From IMG/VR virus record IMGVR_UViG_2874920711_000001: a stretch of 40,896 nucleotides of DNA; one strand, given 5' to 3'. A model generated the notes under the pieces. That model was given only the letters and a program-made list of their open reading frames with translations, was not told the DNA's origin and did no database searches. Shown here in pieces: positions 10,407 to 26,864 of this stretch; positions within the stretch are counted from its first letter, which is position 1, and each line of letters begins with the position of its first letter. The position numbers and the translations under genes are program-made. Origin of the DNA: a virus. Lineage: Duplodnaviria > Heunggongvirae > Uroviricota > Caudoviricetes.

Positions 10407-11735
10407 TTACAACTCCGCGTAATTACCGTGCGCGATGATCAATCCATAGGTGTAACAATCGAAAAGGTCATCAGCACGTTTATGCGCGTCTTTATCCGCC
10501 AGGTGGAATCCGGCGATTTGTTTTATGAGGTGGTTTGCGGTGGTGCGCTTGAATGAAACGGTCTTGTCGTAAGCCTCCCGGACGATTTTGCACATCCCCT
10601 GATAGTGGTAGCTGGATGCCATCACCGCCCGTTCGTCTTTGCCCTTGCTGGTTAGTGCCGATTTAATCGGCGTCATATCCCAGCCTTCGGTTTCCGCCTT
10701 CTGGTTGAGGATTGCCCCCATCGCGGCGTCTTCCATAAAAATTCCCTGGCTGCCCAGACGCGGACGGCATAATTTCGCGAGGCGCTCAAGGTTGTCATAA
10801 ACGCCGGGGATATATTCAGGAAGCAATGACGCTTTAATTTGCGTCACATCCCAGTCAATAATCGTCAGTTTTGGCTCTTCCGAATACGTTGACTCATAAG
10901 CGAAATACAACACGCCAGTACCATCATTTTCGGTCCCGCCTTTCAGCGCCGTATCCATCACTGCGAAAATCATGTCGCAGTACGGCGGCATCTCAATCGG
11001 CTGACCGTCCACCAGCAGCTTATCGACATCGAGTAACGCGTCTTTGGACCAGTCCACGAACTCGGCAAGATATTCCTGCTGCCAGACGCGCGGATCGGAT
11101 TTCTTCTCCGTTTCCTCCAGTTCTTCTTTCGGAATATACGGATTCGATGAAGTTGGCGCATGGTGCATGACAAATCCCAGGGATTCATCGTGGCATATCG
11201 CGTAGAAAAAATTGCTCTCGTCGATACCGTTTGGTGTGGAAAATACCCACGCACAGCCGCGGTAATCGACAAGCGTCGGGCGTATAGCTCGGGGCCAGAT
11301 TTCCTCGAGCATTTCCGGCGATTTAGTGAATGCTGCCTCATCAATCAGCACAGCGTGATATTTACGCCCACACCCGGCCAGTTTGTTATTGTCCGTTACC
11401 CAAAAGTCGATGCGCCCCCCATTACGGAGAATAATGCGCTTTTCATTTTTTGACTGGCTGAGGATCAGCGGTTGCAGAACGGCGCTAATTTCATCCCAGA
11501 TTTCCTGGTACTGGCGGTATTGTGCGGTAAAAATCCCCACCCTACCCGCGATAAGTTGCCCGGTGGTAGGAACGGCAAATTTCCGCGTAGCGAAACTGGT
11601 AGCGATGTTTACCAGCATCACCGTTTTACCCCAGCGACGACCACAGCATACCGCGTGGAAGCGTTCCTCTATTGCCGCCGTCCATGCAGCTATTTGCCCC
11701 TCATGAGGTTTTGGGAGGTAGATTTCAATCGACAT
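10407..11735 (-). CDS. Phage terminase large subunit
   Basis: 442-aa ORF with Walker A-like GRRWGKT and a C-terminal nuclease-type region; overlaps the upstream small-subunit gene. Confidence 0.8.
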   Translation of the reverse strand: MSIEIYLPKPHEGQIAAWTAAIEERFHAVCCGRRWGKTVMLVNIATSFATRKFAVPTTGQLIAGRVGIFTAQYRQYQEIWDEISAVLQPLILSQSKNEKRIILRNGGRIDFWVTDNNKLAGCGRKYHAVLIDEAAFTKSPEMLEEIWPRAIRPTLVDYRGCAWVFSTPNGIDESNFFYAICHDESLGFVMHHAPTSSNPYIPKEELEETEKKSDPRVWQQEYLAEFVDWSKDALLDVDKLLVDGQPIEMPPYCDMIFAVMDTALKGGTENDGTGVLYFAYESTYSEEPKLTIIDWDVTQIKASLLPEYIPGVYDNLERLAKLCRPRLGSQGIFMEDAAMGAILNQKAETEGWDMTPIKSALTSKGKDERAVMASSYHYQGMCKIVREAYDKTVSFKRTTANHLIKQIAGFHLADKDAHKRADDLFDCYTYGLIIAHGNYAEL

Positions 11736-12816
11736 TATCCACTCCCGGCATCGGCAGAGAGTTGTGGATAATTATTTCGTTATTCTCACCACCCACGCCT
11801 TTTTTGAGGTTTTCAATCTCAGTGCGCAGCTTTTCGTTGCGAAGCCTCAGTCCTTCAAGCTCCAGATCATTGCGACTGTCAGTTGCACCACCAGCAGAAC
11901 TTCCTTTCGTCGCCATTATCAGCTTGATAAGTTCGCGCCGGGCGGCAGCCTTATCCTCCAGCAGGATCTCAACACCAAATTTCCCGAGCTTTGCCCCTGC
12001 ATATAATTGTCGCGCATCCCCATCAAGCAGAGTGGTATCAGCCATATAAAGCTGTCCCGTTCCCTCACCGCAGCACTTCGGACAATCCGGATTGGGTATG
12101 GCGTTATCAACAAAGCCGAGGCCTCCATATTCCGGCTCGGGTTTGCCATCTCTGGAGGCCTGTGCCGCTGCCTTATCGAATTCTGCAATATCACGCCACT
12201 GGTAGAGATGATTCTCGCCCCAGCAATAACGGCAGTTAACACGGCGAAATTGTGCCAACTGATTGGGGTCGGCCTGGACAATAGCCATCAACTGACTCAC
12301 CAGTAAATCCAGGTCTGCGGTATAGCGTTTCTGATACTGATTGCGGAAGTAACTGATAGCACGATAAACCCTGGCATTTCTAAGCATACGGCTGGCGTTG
12401 CTGTTAGCTGTCGCACCTTGCCCCTCATAACCAGCCAGTCGGTATGCCTCTGTCGGCTTTTTCCCCTGAGCAACAAGCATCGCAAACTTAGCCTGCTGGT
12501 CAGAAATGCCGAATTCATCGGGGCAGAACGAAAATTCCTCCGCGTCGCCCTCATTCAGGCACGCATCGGATACTGGCTTTTTTTTCTGAGATTTTCCGTT
12601 CCGCTTTTGCGCAGTCTGCGCAGATTTTTTCTGCGCACTTTGTTGCGCAGTTTTACGCATTTCTGTCTGCGCATTTTTCGGAGGTTTTTTGATGTAACGA
12701 CGGGCTGTTGCGTAATTCAGTCCCCTTGCTTCACACCATGCCACCGGAGATATACCGGAGCGGGTGTATTCAGCAATATACTCCTGCTGCAACGCCCCCC
12801 AGTCCGGTCTGCTCAT
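11725..12816 (-). CDS. Putative phage terminase small subunit / DNA-binding packaging protein
   Basis: 363-aa ORF with N-terminal HTH-like segment, immediately upstream of and overlapping the large terminase gene. Confidence 0.5.
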   Translation of the reverse strand: MSRPDWGALQQEYIAEYTRSGISPVAWCEARGLNYATARRYIKKPPKNAQTEMRKTAQQSAQKKSAQTAQKRNGKSQKKKPVSDACLNEGDAEEFSFCPDEFGISDQQAKFAMLVAQGKKPTEAYRLAGYEGQGATANSNASRMLRNARVYRAISYFRNQYQKRYTADLDLLVSQLMAIVQADPNQLAQFRRVNCRYCWGENHLYQWRDIAEFDKAAAQASRDGKPEPEYGGLGFVDNAIPNPDCPKCCGEGTGQLYMADTTLLDGDARQLYAGAKLGKFGVEILLEDKAAARRELIKLIMATKGSSAGGATDSRNDLELEGLRLRNEKLRTEIENLKKGVGGENNEIIIHNSLPMPGVDNVD

Positions 12817-13177
12817 CAGTTAGTCCTGATTTTTATCCACCCTGAGTAGTTCGCGCAGAGCAAAGGCATCCCCTTTTCTGGCAAGCTTAAACAATACCGC
12901 TCGTAACTTGGCTTCACCTTTCGCTCCGCCCTTACGGATGGACGCATAAAATCTCGCTCATACAGCCTTGCTTTATGAATAAAACGCCCCCCAGCAGCCA
13001 GTGCTACTGGGGCGGAGGTGTTGCTGGTAAAGTTAGGTATTGGATCAATGAGTGAGTCAACATAATATTAAACTCACAATTATAAATCAGCCATATATTA
13101 GGAGCGCCAAAAAAAACCTGAAAACAATATAATAACAGGATAAATTTCAAGGCGACCAAGAATCATAGCTATGCACA

Positions 13178-14571
13178 TTAAATATTTTGCAATGTCATTA
13201 AGCACTCCGAATGACGATGCAGTAGCCCAAAACCTAATCCCATATTATTAATACATGCAGCCACTGTTGCAAATGATGTAAGAAAATCATATCCCATACC
13301 ATTTAACACCAGTATAAAAAACACCGTGAAGAGAGTATAAAGAAAAAAGAAACTCCATACAGACCTCATGACACGATCTGTAACTATCTTCCCTCCTACA
13401 TTTACACTCAACAACGCTCTGGGATGAGAAAGCTGGTTTATCTCGTGTTTGCTTTGTTTGAAAAGTATAAGAAATCGAAGTGACTTAATGCCACCACAAG
13501 TTGAACCTACACATCCCCAAAGAAACTTGACAACAGCAAAAACACTATCGTGTGCGTGGGCCAGTTTGCATAATCCTGCGTAGCTAAACCATTATCAGTG
13601 AGCATGGAGCTGGCAAGAAAAAACGAATGAATAAAACTTCCAGGCAAGTCATACATACCTATATGCCAGACCTGGAAAGAGGTAACAATGATCACCCCTA
13701 AGGCTATTAACAGAAAGAAACGAAGTTCAATATCTCTGATTAAAGGTTTTATCGTTTTCCTGCTAATAACAATATACCAAAGGGTGAAATTGAAAGCCGA
13801 TAGCAGGGAAAAAGAACCAGCCACCAGCTCAACCAAATAGTTATTAAAATATCCGATACTCTCGCTATGAGTTGAGAAACCACCAAGCGAAACTGTGGAT
13901 ATCCCGTGACAAATAGCATCAAACAAAGGCATTCCTGCAAGTCTATAACAGACAATACAAGCAATACCTAATAAAGAATAAGTTATCCAAAGTGTCCGTG
14001 ACGTATCGGCCAGGCGGGGAGTAAGTTTGTCATCCTTAAATGGCCCCGGCATTTCTGACTGATAAAGCTTTGCACCACCAATACCCAATAATGGCAATAC
14101 AGCAACCGCCAGAACAATAACTCCTAAACCACCTATAAAATTTAACTGTGACCGATAGTACAAATATGCCCGAGGTAATGAACTAACATCATCAATTACA
14201 GTTGCTCCTGTTGTTGTTATTCCAGAAACCCCTTCAAATAGAGCATCGATAAACGTTAAATTAAGTTCTGAGTCAATCCATAAAGGGAATGCACTAATAA
14301 CAGAAAACAAAATCCAAAACATTACAATTATAATAAACCCATCACGGGTACGTAATTGAATACCAGATTTCTTAGTTGTATACCACGCTCCGCCACCAAT
14401 GCAAAAAAATATAACGAAAGTTATAAAGAAAACGAACAGGCTTTTTTCTTTATAAAACAATGCTACAACCATTGGTGGCAACATTGAAAGACTATAGAGC
14501 CAAACCAGAAACCCACACATATGAGTAACAACTCTTACATGAGATGTATTCATATATAAATATTCTTTCAA
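13178..14571 (-). pseudogene. trkG: TrkH/TrkG-family potassium uptake protein, frame broken by a G-run contraction near 13514-13517
   Basis: 354-aa and 78-aa ORFs are consecutive parts of one multi-pass membrane transporter; AT-rich relative to flanks; trkG is the prophage-borne paralogue in Rac. Confidence 0.7.
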
Positions 14572-14696
14572 TTATAACCACCTTGCTGCAATATTATGAT
14601 TATACTGTATAAAATTTAACTCCTCTAAGATCTTACTTCACTGTTCCTTATGAAACAATCATCAAAATGAATCATATTGTAGTTAAGATTTTACTT

Positions 14697-15154
14697 TAAA
14701 CACTGTTCGGTTATGTATTGCTGAGCACCTTCAAGTTGGGCCTGCATCATTACCAGTCGTTCCCGGAGGGTGAAATAATCCCGTTCAGCGGTGTCTGCCA
14801 GTCTGGGGAGACTGCATTATCCACGCTGGAGGCGATGGTGGCTTCACGCACGGACGGACAGACTGCTTTGATGTGCAACCGACGACGACCAGCGGCAACA
14901 TCATCACGTAGAGCATCATTTTCAGCTTTTGCATCAGCTAACTCCTTCAGGTATTTTGCATCGAGTGCAGCAACATCACGCTGGCGTATCTGCATGTCAG
15001 TAATGATTGCGGTCGCCTGGTTGAGTTTTTCCTTCACATTATCGCGCTGCTCTTTGTAGGTAATGGCGTTATCACGGTAATGATTAACAGCCCATGACAG
15101 GCAGACGATGATGCAGATAACCAGAGCGGAGATAATCGCGGTGACTCTGCTCAT
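14697..15154 (-). pseudogene. Rz i-spanin with embedded Rz1 o-spanin; Rz frame broken at a homopolymer near 14805-14808
   Basis: N-terminus [18 protein letters not shown]; after the break the ORF frame reads the Rz1-type peptide [14 protein letters not shown] while the Rz continuation lies in the adjacent frame. Confidence 0.75.
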
Positions 15155-15646
15155 TGCTGCCCCACAAACAGACTTCACGCTCAATCTCACGACGGGTCAT
15201 CAGCCCTTTCCATTGCTTACCGCCAGCATATGTCCAGCGACGTAGCTGGTCACATGCGCCTTTGATATCGCCCTGGTTTATTTTGCGAAGAAGCGTCGAT
15301 GTTCTGAAATTGCCAGCGCCCACGTTGTAAACGAACGAGTAAAGAGCGCCGCGCGTTGTTTCCGGTATATCGACTTTGATGTACGGGTTAATTTGTCTGG
15401 CGACAGTGGCAAGGTCTTTATTCAGGAGAGCTTTGCATTCTGCTTCGGTATACGTTTTACCAGGCATGATGTCTTTTCCGGTGTGTCCGTGACATACAGT
15501 CCATACACCAATGATATCTTTGTATGGTATGTAGCTGACACCTTCCAGACCATCGTTACCACCTGGGCCAGTGATTAACACAGATGCTATAGCAACAGCC
15601 CGCCACCAATAGCAACTGCAACAGCCTTGCGTAATGATGGCGACAT
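15084..15646 (-). pseudogene. SAR-type phage endolysin (lysozyme), frame broken early at a G run near 15599-15601
   Basis: ATG overlapping the holin stop gives [16 protein letters not shown] then stops; the neighbouring frame continues [20 protein letters not shown] and a lysozyme body. Confidence 0.75.
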
Positions 15647-15860
15647 TATTCACCTCTCGCAGCCTTACGCTTATCTTCTCTTATTTTGAAATACAGATTC
15701 GTCAGATAAGTCAGAAGCCCAGAAGCAGACTTCCCAGCACACCAATCGCAGCCCACTGTGATGGACTGACCTGATCCAACCACTGCAAAAACCAGTAGCC
15801 GGCACTGCCGGCGGAGGTGCCGTAGGCAATGCCTGTTGATATTTTTTCCATCTGATACAT
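15646..15860 (-). pseudogene. Phage-21-type pinholin, frame broken at a G run near 15717-15720
   Basis: ATG at 15860 gives [49 protein letters not shown] then stop; adjacent frame continues [23 protein letters not shown]. Confidence 0.7.
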
Positions 15861-15896
15861 ATCCCGCCCCCGACAGACCTGTGCTATCGGAAAGAA

Positions 15897-15925
15897 AAAA
15901 GGCCATCAGCAAAACTCTGATGGCC
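15897..15925 (-). terminator. Rho-independent terminator-like hairpin upstream of the holin gene (tR'-like position)
   Basis: 9-bp stem GGCCATCAG/CTGATGGCC followed on the minus strand by a T run. Confidence 0.45.
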
Positions 15926-16034
15926 TGAATCACCTTTACCAATATTGTATGAAAAAACACGCACGTCTAATTGACAATAATTTTCATTTCCATTAAAAAA
16001 GATCGCGTAGCATTCTTAATTCATGAGGAACTTT

Positions 16035-16099
16035 ACCCGCCAGCAATCTGAGTAGCGAAAGCTGTTCATCCCCAATGTTTTTGCTGGCGGGTCCTTTTT
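16035..16099 (+). other. Long-loop hairpin (11-bp perfect stem, about 34-nt loop) followed by a T run
   Basis: cccgccagcaa at 16035-16045 pairs with ttgctggcggg at 16080-16090; T6 follows. Confidence 0.4.
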
Positions 16100-16536
16100 T
16101 CTACGGTCCTCCTCCCCGGAGGGGCATTTCATTATTTTTCTAATCATTACTGGTGAGAAGGCGGAAGAAAAAGCCAGTTCTTCGCCCCTAAATAACAGCA
16201 TGATTCCAGTCCATGCAAAATCTGATTTCCAGCTCACACATACCGAGCACTGTACAAAAAACCGCCAGCCAAGGCAGTTAAGAGTGTGTTCCCGGGGTTT
16301 GCTTAGAATATTTTGTAAGTTGTCCGAAGAGATATTTACAACACCAGAATGATGCATTATCAGTCCCCTGCCAGAGGTTCACTACGTAACCTGACCGACA
16401 ATGCACCATTCTGGTGCTGAAAAAAGAGCACTGGAACTGCAACAAAACAACATCACAGAACAGGAGATGGTAAGGAGTCAGACATTCCCACACAATATTG
16501 TGTCAGTGCAAATAACAACCTTCGTCTCAAATCTCG

Positions 16537-16612
<76 letters not shown>

Positions 16613-16614
16613 AT

Positions 16615-16690
<76 letters not shown>

Positions 16691-16692
16691 CG

Positions 16693-16770
16693 CTGGCCCA
16701 CCACCGAGGACTCGAACCTCGCACCGTCAACTTAGAAGGTTGATGCTCTATCCGGATGAGCTAGTGGTGG
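16693..16770 (-). tRNA. tRNA-Arg (anticodon UCU)
   Basis: Acceptor stem ccaccac/gtggtgg, anticodon stem tcaac/gttga with loop cuTCTaa, T-loop ttcgagt, 3' CCA. Confidence 0.8.
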
Positions 16771-16847
16771 TTGGTGGCCCTTGCTGGACTTGAACCAGCG
16801 ACCTGGCGATTATGAGTCGCTCGCTCTGACCAACTGAGCTAAAGGGC
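16771..16847 (-). tRNA. tRNA with CAU anticodon, Ile2-like (would be called Met by anticodon alone)
   Basis: 77-nt cloverleaf, anticodon loop cuCATaa, T-arm resembles Ile2-type tRNAs. Confidence 0.7.
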
Positions 16848-16936
16848 CGGAGGCAGAATAATAACCATATGTCATCACATCTGCAAACTCATCTGACCAC
16901 CAGCACGTTTAACGTCCTGTGCCGTTTTTCAGGTAT

Positions 16937-16958
16937 AAAAAAACCCGCATAAAGCGGG
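16937..16958 (-). terminator. Rho-independent terminator downstream of the 17056-17613 gene
   Basis: Hairpin cccgc-ttta-gcggg followed on the minus strand by T7. Confidence 0.6.
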
Positions 16959-17055
16959 CTCTTTCAAATGTCCATGTCTGCTATTCGCCTCGCGGTACAG
17001 CTTTGCGAAGCGTACAAGAATTGAAGCAGTTTATGGCTAAAATTGCAAGAACTTT

Positions 17056-17613
17056 TTAAAGCTGCATCAGCCTTTCCACCAGTTTATCTCTGCGAACAAC
17101 AAACCAACCATTGGCTCTCGCCAGTTCCAGCCATGACTCAAGGGAAATAACAATATCATCATCCCGCAACTGAATTGTGGAAACAGTGACACCGCCTTGC
17201 TGATAACAGAGAACTCGCGTGTCGTAACTTTTCTGGCATGAAACTGGCGTTGACGGCTCCTTTTGACTGAAATAGCAGTCTTCCAGTTTTTCGAACACAT
17301 CCCACGCCTGATCGGTTTCGAGCATTTTTGCGTGGCGGGCTGCGCCGCGTTCTGTCCAGAGAATGAGGGAGCGGTTTTTGGGAGAGATGGGATTTTGTGA
17401 GTAGTTTAAAGCTACCCGCAATTCTTTAAGGTCATTACCAACAACTTTGAAAAAGTGTTTCCCTTCAACGAAGCGTACTTTGTTCTCATGATGATTCTGG
17501 CGAATACGCACCGGCTCAGTGCCGTAAAGCTGCGCCAAAAGTTCGGTGGTAATAACAGGAATCTGGTTATAGGTAACAGGGGAAAGGTTTTTGACAGAAA
17601 TCTGAACAGTCAT
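17056..17613 (-). CDS. Phage regulatory protein with ORF6N/KilA-N-like domain (antirepressor-like)
   Basis: 185-aa ORF containing LILWTERGAARHAKMLETDQAWDVFEKLEDCYF, resembling phage antirepressor N-domains. Confidence 0.5.
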   Translation of the reverse strand: MTVQISVKNLSPVTYNQIPVITTELLAQLYGTEPVRIRQNHHENKVRFVEGKHFFKVVGNDLKELRVALNYSQNPISPKNRSLILWTERGAARHAKMLETDQAWDVFEKLEDCYFSQKEPSTPVSCQKSYDTRVLCYQQGGVTVSTIQLRDDDIVISLESWLELARANGWFVVRRDKLVERLMQL

Positions 17614-17899
17614 AACGACCTCGCGTTTCGATGGTTTTTAACTCACCACCTGCGACGCCAATCGCTGGGTGGTGAACTGTGCAGGGTTGGCGTAACCGGT
17701 CGAAACATCCGGCGAGTCTCTCAACTCCCCCACACAGCCCACCATAAATCGCGAATGTGACTGTGCTTAGCGCATAAAAAAACCGCCAGCGCGGTTATGC
17801 ACCGTTTTGAGGTAGCCTGAGTTTAACGGACACTCCTTCCTGAAATAGAATGGCATCAGAAGGAGCTAATAATGAGCAGAAAAACCCAACGTTACTCTA

Positions 17900-18814
17900 G
17901 GCTGTGTCCCTTAATCATCTGAGCTATAGTAACTGTCTGTTTACACAACATATTGAACTATGGCTCGCTACGACCTTCCCGATGAGGCATGGACCATCAT
18001 CAAGCCCCTGTTACCTCCTGAACCCGCCACACCACGGGCCGGACGCCCATGGGCTGAGCACCGTAAAATCATCAATGGCATGTTCTGGGTGTTATGTTCC
18101 GGTGCACCATGGCGCGATTTACCCGAACGATATGGGTCATGGAAAACTGTTTATAACCGCTTTAACCGATGGTCAAAGTCAGGCGTGATTAATATTATTT
18201 TCAACAGGTTGCTTTCGCTACTTGATGCAAACGGCTTTATTGACTGGTCTGCCACCGCGCTGGATGGCAGTAATATCCGGGCGCTGAAATGTGCCGCCGG
18301 TGCTCAAAAAAACATCCCGATATCGACGGAGATAATGGGCTGGGTCGCTCTCGCGGCGGTTTTGGCACCAAAATCCATCTGGCAACAGACGGAAGTGGCC
18401 TCCCGTTAAATATCGTGCTAAGCCCGGACAAGCTCATGAAAGCCAGTTCGCGCAACGACTTCTGGACGGGATTGGCGTTCAGCGTCAGAACGGCAGCATG
18501 AAACGCCGTGGACATGCGGTACTGGCTGATAAAGCGTATTCAGGGCGCGCATTGCGCAACGAGCTGAAAAATAACGGTATAAAGGCAGTAATCCCCCGAA
18601 AGTCAAATGAGAAAATGGCATCGGATGGACGTGCACAGCTTGATCGTGATGCGTACTGCAATCGTAATGTCGTTGAACGGTGCTTTGGGCGGCTGAAAGA
18701 ATATCGCCGCATCGCCACGCGTTACGACAAAACGGCGAGAAATTACCTGGCGATGGTGAAACTGGGCTGCATCCGACTCTTTTATCAACGCTTACGTAAT
18801 TAAGGGACACAGCC
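17900..18814 (+). mobile_element. IS5-family insertion sequence (about 915 bp), TA duplication, inserted in IS600 orfA
   Basis: Inverted ends GGCTGTGTCCCTTAAT...ATTAAGGGACACAGCC; IS600 sequence resumes with duplicated TA. Confidence 0.7.
17960..18803 (+). pseudogene. IS5-family DDE transposase, frame broken at an A7 run (18306-18312) and a G run (18426-18427)
   Basis: Three consecutive ORFs (17960-18409, 18289-18501, 18498-18803) together read as one transposase (MARYDL..., TKIHLATDG..., KAYSG...RYDKTARNY). Confidence 0.7.
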
Positions 18815-19126
18815 TAAAGAGTTCAAAGCCGAAGCTGTCAGAACGGTTCTTGAAAATCAACTTTCGATCAGTGAAGGCGCTTCCCGATTATCCCTTCCTG
18901 AAGGCACTTTAGGACAATGGGTTACCGCCGCCAGAAAAGGACTCGGTACTCCTGGTTCCCGCACGGTGGCTGAACTGGAATCTGAAATTCTGCAACTGCG
19001 TAAGGCGTTAAATGAAGCTCGCCTTGAGCGAGATATATTAAAAAAAGCAACAGCGTATTTTGCACAGGAGTCGCTGAAAAATACGCGTTAATCGAACAAT
19101 GGCGACAACAATTTCCCATTGAAGCG

Positions 19127-20086
19127 ATGTGTCAGGTATTTGGTGTATCCAGGAGCGGTTATTACAACCGGGTACAGCATGAACCCTCAGACAGAAAACA
19201 AAGTGATGAGCGGCTAAAACTGGAGATTAAGGTGGCACATATCCGCACTCGCGAAACATATGGAACCCGGCGGCTCCAGACGGAGCTGGCAGAGAATGGC
19301 ATCATCGTTGGTCGTGACCGACTGGCACGTCTTCGTAAGGAGCTAAGGCTACGCTGTAAGCAGAAACGCAAGTTCAGAGCGACTACGAACCCGAACCACA
19401 ATCTGCCAGTTGCGCCAAATCTGCTGAACCAGACGTTCGCTCCTACAGCACCAAATCAGGTCTGGGTGGCGGACCTGACGTATGTTGCCACACAGGAGGG
19501 ATGGTTGTACCTCGCTGGCATCAAAGATGTTTATACGTGCGAAATTGTCGGCTACGCCATGGGAGAGCGCATGACAAAAGAGCTGACAGGTAAAGCCCTG
19601 TTTATGGCGCTCAGGAGCCAGCGCCCACCTGCCGGGCTAATCCACCACTCTGATCGAGGTTCACAGTACTGCGCATACGATTACCGGGTCATACAGGAGC
19701 AGTTTGGTCTGAAAACATCAATGTCGCGTAAAGGTAACTGTTACGACAACGCTCCGATGGAAAGCTTCTGGGGAACGCTGAAAAATGAGAGCCTGAGCCA
19801 CTATCGTTTTAATAACCGGGATGAAGCCATCTCAGTAATACGGGAATACATTGAGATTTTCTACAATCGTCAGCGTCGTCACTCTCGTCTGGGAATATCT
19901 CCCCGGCAGCCTTCAGGGAAAAATATCATCAGATGGCTGCTTAAAAAAAGAACAAATGGTAGTGTCCGCTATTGCCAGTACACCTCATTTCGATATCCGG
20001 GACGCCAATCCCGACGCCAGATTTTGCTGGCGCGTGAGGAATATAGCCCCGGATTAACGTTGTCGTCAACAGCCACTACAGGCTAA
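19127..20086 (+). pseudogene. IS600 OrfB with altered 3' end (G-run contraction at 19891-19893); reads past the IS end
   Basis: Identical to intact OrfB up to RLG, then frame changes; ORF extends beyond the IS600 terminus at 19987. Confidence 0.75.
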
Positions 20087-20120
20087 ACTAACAATATTCC
20101 CCAACAACGAAGGATTTAAC

Positions 20121-20408
20121 ATGGCTCAGGTCTATTTTGATACACTGAAGTTCGTCGAAACCTTGGAAGCCGCAGGAATGCCGGCAGCTCAGGCGCGCGC
20201 TATATCTGCCGCAGTGAAAGATTCTCACGAAGCCGCAGAAGTCGCCACAAAGCGCGACCTAAATGATGTCAGAACTGAACTAAAAAACGACATTGCAGCC
20301 CTTGATGCAAAAATAGACAAACTCAGCCTGCAACTGACCGTCAGATTTGGTGGCATGCTCGTCGTTGCTGTTGGCGCACTGACAGCCATCATCAAATTAC
20401 CTCTTTAA
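20121..20408 (+). CDS. Hypothetical coiled-coil protein with C-terminal transmembrane helix
   Basis: 95-aa ORF with good start context; C-terminal hydrophobic stretch GGMLVVAVGALTAIIKLPL. Confidence 0.5.
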   Translation: MAQVYFDTLKFVETLEAAGMPAAQARAISAAVKDSHEAAEVATKRDLNDVRTELKNDIAALDAKIDKLSLQLTVRFGGMLVVAVGALTAIIKLPL

Positions 20409-20516
20409 ATTACCAGCCCGTTCGGGGCTGGTTTACCTTACCCCAGCGGCAAATCGAATACACAACCAGCGCCACCGCCATTGCAATTCCTACCGTGGTG
20501 AATGCTTCAGGCCAGG

Positions 20517-20975
20517 TCATCGTAAAACATCCTCCACGCTTATCAGTCCATTTCGCTTCAGGTAATCCATCGCCTTCTCCGGTAATTTGCAGTCAGGCTT
20601 AGCTTTTTTCAGTTGACTGACCAGTCGTTTAACCCACATTGTTAATTCGCTAACCTGATTACTGGATGCTAGTAGGTTGTCGGCTTTACCCAGAATGACA
20701 GCACAGCAAGCCTCTTTGAGTACCCAGTCAACAGCGTCTTTCCATGCTCCTGTTTCGACTGGTGGATTCTCACGCTTTACCTGTTCATAAAAGCGCACGG
20801 CTTTAACCAGTCCTTCTGATGTCACCTGGACTGGCGGGGCAGTGAATAAGGCCTGAATTTCATAGTTCGGCCTGTCGTTACAATCCTCTTTTTTCGGTAC
20901 ATATTTCCAGTCACCAGACCACCACTTCCCCTGAAAGTCCGTAACGCCTTTTTTTTCACGTAGCGATATCGCCAT
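20517..20975 (-). CDS. Hypothetical phage protein (152 aa)
   Basis: Uninterrupted ORF convergent with 20121-20408; no family recognised. Confidence 0.45.
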   Translation of the reverse strand: MAISLREKKGVTDFQGKWWSGDWKYVPKKEDCNDRPNYEIQALFTAPPVQVTSEGLVKAVRFYEQVKRENPPVETGAWKDAVDWVLKEACCAVILGKADNLLASSNQVSELTMWVKRLVSQLKKAKPDCKLPEKAMDYLKRNGLISVEDVLR

Positions 20976-23195: not shown

Positions 23196-23650
23196 TCACA
23201 GTACCACCTCCTGAAAATTACCCTGATAGAAAGCCAGTACACGCTGCATAACTTCGCTTTTACGACACTCAGTACAAATTATATTATGACGCCTGTCGTA
23301 ACGATGTATTTCTCCGTCAGGTATGAGGTAGCCTGAGTTTAACGGACACTCCTTCCTGAAATAGAATGGCATCAGAAGGAGCTAATAATGAGCAGAAAAA
23401 CCCAACGTTACTCTAAAGAGTTCAAAGCCGAAGCTGTCAGAACGGTTCTTGAAAATCAACTTTCGATCAGTGAAGGCGCTTCCCGATTATCCCTTCCTGA
23501 AGGCACTTTAGGACAATGGGTTACCGCCGCCAGAAAAGGACTCGGTACTCCTGGTTCCCGCACGGTGGCTGAACTGGAATCTGAAATTCTGCAACTGCGT
23601 AAGGCGTTAAATGAAGCTCGCCTTGAGCGAGATATATTAAAAAAAGCAAC

Positions 23651-24869
23651 TGTAGATTCAATTGGTCAACGCAACAGTTATGTGAAAACATGGGTTGCGG
23701 AGGTTTTTTGAATGAGACGAACATTTACAGCAGAGGAAAAAGCCTCTGTTTTTGAACTATGGAAGAACGGAACAGGCTTCAGTGAAATAGCGAATATCCT
23801 GGGTTCAAAACCCGGAACGATCTTCACTATGTTAAGGGATACTGGCGGCATAAAACCCCATGAGCGTAAGCGGGCTGTAGCTCACCTGACACTGTCTGAG
23901 CGCGAGGAGATACGAGCTGGTTTGTCAGCCAAAATGAGCATTCGTGCGATAGCTACTGCGCTGAATCGCAGTCCTTCGACGATCTCACGTGAAGTTCAGC
24001 GTAATCGGGGCAGACGCTATTACAAAGCTGTTGATGCTAATAACCGAGCCAACAGAATGGCGAAAAGGCCAAAACCGTGCTTACTGGATCAAAATTTACC
24101 ATTGCGAAAGCTTGTTCTGGAAAAGCTGGAGATGAAATGGTCTCCAGAGCAAATATCAGGATGGTTAAGGCGAACAAAACCACGTCAAAAAACGCTGCGA
24201 ATATCACCTGAGACAATTTATAAAACGCTGTACTTTCGTAGCCGTGAAGCGCTACACCACCTGAATATACAGCATCTGCGACGGTCGCATAGCCTTCGCC
24301 ATGGCAGGCGTCATACCCGCAAAGGCGAAAGAGGTACGATTAACATAGTGAACGGAACACCAATTCACGAACGTTCCCGAAATATCGATAACAGACGCTC
24401 TCTGGGCATTGGGAGGGCGATTTAGTCTCAGGTACAAAAAACTCTCATATAGCCACACTTGTAGACCGAAAATCACGTTATACGATCATCCTTAGACTCA
24501 GGGGCAAAGATTCTGTCTCAGTAAATCAGGCTCTTACCGACAAATTCCTGAGTTTACCGTCAGAACTCAGAAAATCACTGACATGGGACAGAGGAATGGA
24601 ACTGGCCAGACATCTAGAATTTACTGTCAGCACCGGCGTTAAAGTTTACTTCTGCGATCCTCAGAGTCCTTGGCAGCGGGGAACAAATGAGAACACAAAT
24701 GGGCTAATTCGGCAGTACTTTCCTAAAAAGACATGTCTTGCCCAATATACTCAACATGAACTAGATCTGGTTGCTGCTCAGCTAAACAACAGACCGAGAA
24801 AGACACTGAAGTTCAAAACACCGAAAGAGATAATTGAAAGGGGTGTTGCATTGACAGATTGAATCTACA
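23651..24869 (+). mobile_element. IS30 copy (1219 bp) nested in IS600 orfA
   Basis: Ends TGTAGATTCAAT...; 1 bp shorter than the copy at 6972-8191 because of a G-run difference upstream of the transposase start. Confidence 0.8.
23712..24862 (+). pseudogene. IS30 transposase, same 1-bp frame break as the 6979-8129 copy (G run at 24404-24406)
   Basis: 237-aa ORF plus 88-aa ORF 24596-24862. Confidence 0.8.
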
Positions 24870-24946
24870 ACAGCGTATTTTGCACAGGAGTCGCTGAAAA
24901 ATACGCGTTAATCGAACAATGGCGACAACAATTTCCCATTGAAGCG

Positions 24947-25822
24947 ATGTGTCAGGTATTTGGTGTATCCAGGAGCGGTTATTACAACTGGGTACAGCAT
25001 GAACCCTCAGACAGAAAACAAAGTGATGAGCGGCTAAAACTGGAGATTAAGGTGGCACATATCCGCACTCGCGAAACATATGGAACCCGGCGGCTCCAGA
25101 CGGAGCTGGCAGAGAATGGCATCATCGTTGGTCGTGACCGACTGGCACGTCTTCGTAAGGAGCTAAGGCTACGCTGTAAGCAGAAACGCAAGTTCAGAGC
25201 GACTACGAACCCGAACCACAATCTGCCAGTTGCGCCAAATCTGCTGAACCAGACGTTCGCTCCTACAGCACCAAATCAGGTCTGGGTGGCGGACCTGACG
25301 TATGTTGCCACACAGGAGGGATGGTTGTACCTCGCTGGCATCAAAGATGTTTATACGTGCGAAATTGTCGGCTACGCCATGGGAGAGCGCATGACAAAAG
25401 AGCTGACAGGTAAAGCCCTGTTTATGGCGCTCAGGAGCCAGCGCCCACCTGCCGGGCTAATCCACCACTCTGATCGAGGTTCACAGTACTGCGCATACGA
25501 TTACCGGGTCATACAGGAGCAGTTTGGTCTGAAAACATCAATGTCGCGTAAAGGTAACTGTTACGACAACGCTCCGATGGAAAGCTTCTGGGGAACGCTG
25601 AAAAATGAGAGCCTGAGCCACTATCGTTTTAATAACCGGGATGAAGCCATCTCAGTAATACGGGAATACATTGAGATTTTCTACAATCGTCAGCGTCGTC
25701 ACTCTCGTCTGGGGAATATCTCCCGGCAGCCTTCAGGGAACAATATCATCAGATGGCTGCTTAAAAAAAGAACAAATGGTAGTGTCCGCTATTGCCAGTA
25801 CACCTCAGTAATGACCAGATAA
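24947..25822 (+). pseudogene. IS600 OrfB with altered 3' end (C-run contraction at 25722-25724)
   Basis: Identical to intact OrfB up to RLGNIS, then frame changes and reads past the IS end at 25807. Confidence 0.75.
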
Positions 25823-26174: not shown

Positions 26175-26864
26175 TCACCCAGCGCCGCCGTTCATGACCA
26201 TGCGATCCATCACCCGCTCGCCGAGCAATGTTTTCATCACCTCATAGTTCAGGTTTGTCAGCATCCCCACGCTGCGCATCGACGCTGTCCGGCGATCAAC
26301 AATCTGGTGCAGCACCACCTGCTCGTTTTTCGTCTCGCGCTGAATGCCAATTTCATCAAGAACCAGCAGATCCACTTCGCACAGCTCCCGCAAAAATTTT
26401 TCGCCTGACTGCCCGTCGTCATAGCTGGCGTGCAGGGCGCTCATAACATCAGCCACGGTAACCACAATCACTGTCTGACCGTCTTTCAGCAGGCGATTCC
26501 CGATAGCTGCCGCTAAGTGATTCTTCCCGGTACCAGGTTTTCCGCTGAACGCAAAATTTGTACACCCGGTCATCAGTTCATCGGCGATGGATTTCGCCTG
26601 GCTTAACGCGTATCGCTGGCCGTCGTTCTGCACCTGGTAATTCGCAAACGAGCATTTACGGTGCAACGGCTGGATGCCTGAGCGATTCAGAATTTTTTCC
26701 ACCCGCAACTGGCGATTCAGGCGGTTGATCTCCTCGCTACGTTTCTGGCCTTCAGCAAGTTGCCACTCGCGCCACTCCGCTACCGTTCTGAATGGGGCGG
26801 TTACATGTGGCGGGGTCAGTCGGCGGATGCGTTCCAGAACGCCGCCTGTCGCAATATTTTTCAT
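26175..26864 (-). CDS. DnaC/IstB-like replication helicase-loader ATPase
   Basis: 229-aa ORF with Walker A GKPGTGKNHLA and Walker B LLVLDEIG; start overlaps the stop of the upstream replication gene (ATGA). Confidence 0.8.
   Translation of the reverse strand: MKNIATGGVLERIRRLTPPHVTAPFRTVAEWREWQLAEGQKRSEEINRLNRQLRVEKILNRSGIQPLHRKCSFANYQVQNDGQRYALSQAKSIADELMTGCTNFAFSGKPGTGKNHLAAAIGNRLLKDGQTVIVVTVADVMSALHASYDDGQSGEKFLRELCEVDLLVLDEIGIQRETKNEQVVLHQIVDRRTASMRSVGMLTNLNYEVMKTLLGERVMDRMVMNGGAG

Follow-up and report, generated by a model that had tools for sequence, protein, structure and literature searches.

Frameshifts in the phage-21-type lysis cassette of a Shigella prophage are very probably G/C homopolymer under-calls of a single assembly

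The window analysed here is a stretch of 40,896 nt that is an exact piece of the Shigella chromosome GenBank CP026824.1 (GCA_002949875.1). On its minus strand, at 14691-15860, it carries in order the genes for a pinholin, a SAR endolysin and Rz with an embedded Rz1, a phage-21-type lysis cassette that is already catalogued. Comparison with other assemblies of the same prophage leaves us with little doubt that the frameshifts in this cassette are under-calls of G/C homopolymers in this one assembly and not mutations. The most likely source of such one-base G/C under-calls would be a long-read consensus made without accurate-read polishing, and the strain's true sequence would almost certainly encode all four lysis proteins intact.

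Layout and family of the lysis cassette

The cassette genes, with the lengths of their products after bases were restored as described below, are:

15646..15860, minus strand: pinholin/antiholin gene (S21 type, class II holin), 71 aa with one base restored
15151..15646, minus strand: SAR endolysin gene (R21/RrrD-type lysozyme), 165 aa with two bases restored
14691..15154, minus strand: Rz i-spanin gene, 154 aa with one base restored
14750..14934, minus strand: Rz1 o-spanin lipoprotein gene, 61 aa after restoration, lipobox LVVVGC with Cys20

An earlier note made from the letters of the window had described a phage-21-type cassette at 14697-15925. The coding span is instead 14691-15860, and the family assignment was confirmed by four Pfam matches and by 83-95% identity to the phage 21 proteins. 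The restored holin matched PF04971 (Phage_holin_2_1, phage P21 holin S) at 121.4 bits against a cut-off of 26, the endolysin PF00959 (T4-lysozyme-like) at 155.6 bits (cut-off 22), Rz PF03245 at 167.5 bits (cut-off 25) and Rz1 PF06085 at 65.4 bits (cut-off 28). A search of the four proteins against NCBIfam returned no informative equivalog. Identity to phage 21 was 65/71 residues for the holin against S21-71 (92%), the match taking in the two hydrophobic segments and the charged tail at the C-terminus, 156/165 for the endolysin against R21 (95%), 128/154 for Rz (83%) and 51/61 for Rz1 (84%).

Gene order and overlaps are common to the window and phage 21 (GenBank OL657228.1; S21, R21, Rz21 and Rz1-21): S and R overlap by TAATG, R and Rz by ATGA, and Rz1 lies inside Rz in the +1 frame. 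The TAATG overlap of holin and endolysin, which the earlier note had proposed, is present as described, the endolysin start sharing the A of the holin TAA at 15646, and the holin, endolysin and Rz/Rz1 peptides quoted in that note were all found in the minus-strand ORF list. Rz starts in an ATGA overlap with the endolysin end and has an N-terminal transmembrane segment; the Rz1 gene (14750-14934) lies entirely within Rz (14691-15154), and in its product the lipobox cysteine is followed by Thr-Ser. This is the embedded architecture of two-component spanins, in which the gene for an o-spanin lipoprotein sits inside that for an i-spanin with an N-terminal transmembrane domain (PMC6139136).

In the alignment of the endolysin with R21, residues E35, D44 and T50 are conserved, which we take to be the Glu-Asp-Thr catalytic triad positions of R21. 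Residues 8-26 form a Gly/Ala-rich, weakly hydrophobic SAR segment that is likewise conserved in this alignment; the N-terminal segment is thus of the signal-anchor-release type, its release behaviour being a prediction. The 92% identity of the holin to S21 similarly predicts small (~2 nm) pinholes that would depolarise the membrane but not pass endolysin. By analogy with the family, the pinholin would accumulate in the inner membrane until small heptameric pinholes dissipate the proton motive force; the SAR endolysin, up to then tethered to the membrane, would be released, refold and cut the peptidoglycan, after which the Rz/Rz1 spanin complex would disrupt the outer membrane. Heptameric channels of ~2 nm, SAR endolysin release and outer-membrane disruption by spanins have been described for pinholin lysis (PMC6116005, PMC9636201, PMC6139136).

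Several features set the region apart from phage 21, with which it shares ~91% nucleotide identity by megablast. The central coiled-coil segment of Rz and the C-termini of Rz and Rz1 have diverged, and downstream of the lysis genes lies trkG in the window versus bor in phage 21. The holin begins MYQM versus MKSM in S21-71, so that Lys2 of the antiholin form is absent. In S21, the antiholin made from the dual-start motif MKSM carries an additional positive charge at its N-terminus (PMC9636201). At 15849-15860 (minus strand) of the window, both dual-start Met codons (Met1 and Met4) are kept and the extra-charge Lys is gone; the MYQM holin allele occurs on at least 998 contigs and is a common natural variant.

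By megablast, thousands of E. coli genomes also contain the region, with the annotations essD, rrrD and rzpD-rzoD. The essD-rrrD-rzpD/rzoD cassette of DLP12-type E. coli cryptic prophages belongs to the same family (~90% nucleotide identity), as does the Rac-like essD-rrrD-rzoD-trkG arrangement (for example, E. coli 3-72, NZ_CP155528.1; ~90% nucleotide identity), in which trkG is the downstream neighbour as in the window. The Shigella allele is a sequence variant distinct from both E. coli forms. Unlike the E. coli essD-rrrD loci, the window prophage lies next to yebY, and ipaH3 and numerous IS elements are part of it.

Frame breaks and their restoration

Alignment with phage 21 and with the E. 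coli Rac-like locus revealed four one-base gaps in the coding span of the window. Together with a fifth, non-coding site, the contracted runs of the cassette are:

15718..15720, minus-strand gene: holin; CCC on the plus strand, GGGG in sister loci
15599..15601, minus-strand gene: endolysin, about codon 16; CCC, true length 4
15160..15163, minus-strand genes: two codons ahead of the endolysin stop and of the ATGA overlap with Rz; CCCC, true length 5
14805..14808, minus-strand genes: common to Rz and Rz1; GGGG on the plus strand, true length 5
15867..15871, minus-strand gene: holin 5' leader/ribosome-binding region, non-coding; CCCCC, true length 6

As deposited, the holin frame stops after 49 aa (ORF 15711..15860) and the C-terminal tail of the holin forms the end of another ORF, 15646..15960. 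The endolysin body lies in an ORF of 189 aa (15084..15653) that runs past the normal stop into the Rz region. Compensating frameshifts within the endolysin were considered and ruled out, both of its contractions being -1. The single contraction at 14805-14808 breaks Rz and Rz1 alike: Rz1 ends early at 49 aa, and a 146-aa ORF (14750..15190) starts in the Rz frame, shifts to the Rz1 frame and ends as the Rz1 C-terminus, which bears out the earlier reading that the Rz break sends the ORF into the embedded Rz1.

When one base was duplicated at each of the four coding sites, the products were a holin of 71 aa, an endolysin of 165 aa, Rz of 154 aa and Rz1 of 61 aa. The earlier note had attributed the damage to three single-base run contractions and proposed restoring them in silico. 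Its three sites are exact, each being a contraction relative to the sister loci, and restoration did give full-length ORFs; it had overlooked the fourth coding break (15160-15163), so that four bases are needed rather than three, and also the contraction in the holin leader (15867-15871). With only its three repairs the endolysin would still overrun, because 15160-15163 remains contracted.

We then looked up the restored and the broken proteins as exact sequences in a collection of 15 billion sequences. Proteins identical to the restored holin were present on at least 998 other contigs, to the endolysin on 449 (named lysozyme RrrD), to Rz on 13 (named for Shigella dysenteriae) and to Rz1 on 8. 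Of the broken products, the collection had neither the Rz fusions (134 and 146 aa) nor the 49-aa stub of the holin, and the 189-aa endolysin ORF was found on the source contig alone. The broken products are thus absent elsewhere, and a shared inherited lesion is therefore without support.

Intact sister loci, the indel spectrum and rival explanations

We compared the window with nine sister loci, which come from strains other than that of CP026824.1 and are about 99.9% identical: L004 (AAMJ02000035, a Sanger-era draft of S. dysenteriae 1012), L006 (CP027027.1), L008 (NCTC, UYIS01000022), L007, the two other draft assemblies L011 and L012, and L005, L009 and L010. An exact look-up with the small terminase had led both to CP026824.1 and to this prophage in independent assemblies. 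The CP026824.1 locus itself (L003), in reverse complement, matches window positions 3725-20816 exactly. In CP027027.1, UYIS01000022 and AAMJ02000035 the same prophage is present at 99.8-99.9% nucleotide identity over 14 kb, with one extra base in each of 13 G/C runs, which leaves the genes intact, and with proteins identical to the restored window proteins. Across the set, the cassette contractions are absent from 8 of the 9 sister loci (L004-L008 and L010-L012), all of which have an intact holin (68/71 aa), endolysin (165 aa) and Rz (154 aa). TrkG was called at 485 aa in six of these eight; no trkG was listed for L005 or L010.

The ninth locus, L009 (GCA_002968135.1, PSSP01000002.1), is an additional contig of 24.9 kb in another Shigella assembly and duplicates a segment of the prophage. 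It is contracted at four of the window's G/C runs of at least 5 nt (L008 positions 4684, 4938, 5649 and 6005), sharing both cassette contractions in runs of that length (endolysin C-terminus and Rz), and its endolysin was called at 187 aa. The chromosomal copy in the same assembly, L007, is intact, and L009 is probably a low-coverage, unpolished redundant contig. That a low-quality, unrelated contig shows contractions at identical runs points to a systematic sequencing or consensus bias.

Over 14,184 nt aligned with L008, the window differs by 4 substitutions and 13 indels. All 13 indels are single-base deletions in the window, inside G or C runs of reference length 4-6, and insertions in the window were not seen over this alignment. 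The same 13 deletion sites were recovered against L004 and L006 where aligned, and the same sites against L011. The four substitutions against L008 are all transversions (A>T, T>A, A>C and T>A). Counted by run length in the reference, the runs were affected as follows:

G/C runs of 4 nt: 4 of 63 contracted
G/C runs of 5 nt: 7 of 9 contracted
G/C runs of 6 nt: 2 of 5 contracted
A/T runs of at least 4 nt: 0 of 181 contracted, 31 of these runs being at least 6 nt

G/C runs of at least 5 nt were thus contracted in 9 of 14 cases, about two thirds. If indels fell at random among runs of at least 4 nt, the probability that all 13 would lie in G/C runs is 1.5e-7. Within the reference cassette, all 4 G/C runs of at least 4 nt are contracted and none of the 10 A/T runs of at least 4 nt is changed.

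The contractions extend well beyond the lysis genes. Non-coding sites are affected at 15867-15871, 16121-16124 and ~13013, and the gene next to the cassette is broken twice:

13098..14553, minus strand: trkG moron, directly downstream of Rz and before the terminase genes as in Rac; G/C-run contractions at 13515-13518 and 13226-13228

With both bases restored, trkG encodes 485 aa identical to the product of L008. A tail-fibre gene (~4700-6050, minus strand) that encodes 588 aa in both L006 and L008 is split in the window into ORFs of 268 and 205 aa by one-base G-run deletions at ~5380 and ~5086. The window also contains three copies (6033-8524, 23317-25807 in reverse, and 34577-37063) of a 2.49-kb composite element, made up of IS600 and another member of the IS3 family. 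Between these copies there are a few substitutions, and four different G4/C4 runs vary in length by one base. This discordance serves as an internal control and is a sign of homopolymer under-calling across the whole window.

Further candidates lie in the right half of the window, where comparison with a more divergent E. coli O121 locus suggested G/C-run contractions at ~32647 (recE), ~30237, ~37131 and ~25721. Sister loci for this half were sought through a 229-aa YdaV-like ORF (26175-26864) and none was found, this ORF being unique to the source contig. A RecE fragment (356 aa, 31602-32672), the YdaV-like ORF and an IS600 ORF (319 aa, 19127-20086) each had their exact sequence on the source contig only, which suggests further assembly-specific frame errors.

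Shigella genomes contain many genuine pseudogenes, and real decay of lysis genes is not implausible in principle in such a genome and in a heavily IS-disrupted prophage. A cryptic prophage cassette could have been inactivated gene by gene during Shigella genome decay: the frameshifts are present in the deposited sequence, and selection on the lysis genes may be weak in an IS-filled prophage in which no homologue of the two Q types searched for was found near the cassette. We nevertheless consider genuine pseudogenisation highly improbable. It does not account for 13 indels to 4 substitutions, all of the indels deletions, with 9 of 14 G/C runs of at least 5 nt hit versus 0 of 181 A/T runs of at least 4 nt, whereas slippage during replication should strike the long A/T runs (up to 8 nt) no less often. 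Intergenic sites and unrelated genes are contracted just as the cassette is, each IS copy in the window is short at different run bases, the unrelated low-quality contig L009 is contracted at the same runs, and the cassette is intact in the other sister assemblies examined. Taken at face value, the deposited sequence would mean that the CP026824.1 strain has true one-base deletions in G/C runs of all four lysis genes, trkG, a tail-fibre gene and IS transposases, and that an unusual deletion process specific to G/C runs has silenced a cassette that is intact in its closest relatives; this, too, seems to us very unlikely.

Mutator strains are enriched in run-length indels, and a mismatch-repair-deficient lineage would carry real homopolymer frameshifts throughout its genome. 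Such a lineage should also show many transitions, yet only 4 substitutions, all transversions, separate the window from L008 over 14 kb, and neither insertions nor changes in A/T runs were seen against that locus. Scaled to the whole genome, four lesions in the four overlapping genes of the cassette, plus two in trkG and no fewer than three more within the 14 kb, would be a load with which a cell could hardly be viable, and we give a mutator origin almost no credence. The idea that real frameshifts are bypassed by programmed ribosomal frameshifting or transcriptional slippage to give functional proteins is vanishingly improbable: nothing was found in its support, the window runs are merely 3-4 G/C bases, a slippery heptamer and a stimulatory structure are both absent, the sister loci have ordinary ORFs with one more base, and rescue by transcriptional slippage is, to our knowledge, known only for long A/T runs.

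Under-calling by the assembly is favoured over these biological explanations because the changes are deletions only, occur in G/C runs only, affect about two thirds of such runs of at least 5 nt and are indifferent to coding status. Homopolymer indels are the main type of error in long-read assemblies and turn genes into apparent pseudogenes (PMC12007338). The window resembles that description in its single-base run deletions, which fragment genes and imitate pseudogenes, and differs from it in a bias exclusively to G/C runs. The earlier statement that every gene is frame-broken thus describes the deposited letters; as a biological state it is contradicted by the intact sister assemblies and by the artefact-like indel spectrum. 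The same note had advised confirmation with accurate reads, which was the right caveat, and the nearest substitute at hand, a set of independent assemblies, says that the breaks are very probably not real.

Prophage context and consequences

The prophage is an ipaH-carrying, lambdoid, IS-riddled element on the yebY side of the Shigella chromosome. An intact ipaH3 gene for a T3SS effector E3 ligase (2390-4105, plus strand) lies at one prophage end, and chromosomal yebY (40555-40896, minus strand) lies at the other end of the window, adjoining an integrase region. By exact look-up, intact neighbour proteins (terminases and IpaH3) carry Shigella names. Upstream of the cassette we located the following features:

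15900..15926, minus strand: terminator-like 10-bp GC-rich hairpin and T-tract, ~40 nt upstream of the holin start, called by consensus scan only
16538..16848, minus strand: tRNA cluster Met-CAT, Arg-TCT, Thr-TGT and Gly-TCC
17056-17613: ORF6N anti-repressor-like gene
17960-20086: IS elements, upstream of the ORF6N gene

A hairpin and a tRNA cluster upstream of the lysis genes are the usual layout of a late-operon leader in lambdoid phages. Phage 21 likewise has a tRNA cluster, between pR' and S, and the window tRNAs occupy the equivalent position, although the sets differ (Met/Arg/Thr/Gly in the window versus Asn/Thr in phage 21). Sister locus L010 has a gene for a Q antiterminator on the upstream side of the ORF6N anti-repressor-like gene. 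When two types of Q from the sister loci served as tblastn queries, no Q gene was found in the window. The late operon of the CP026824.1 strain may therefore be transcriptionally orphaned, without a late-transcription activator even if its reading frames are intact.

The cassette adds nothing to what is known of pinholin, SAR-endolysin and spanin lysis, its exact proteins being already catalogued. With at least 13 single-base G/C-run deletions in 14 kb, we suggest that the whole CP026824.1 assembly needs polishing. The value of the finding is as a quality flag only: pseudogene counts, the apparent 'crypticity' of the prophage and its lysis competence would mislead if they were read from the CP026824.1 genome.
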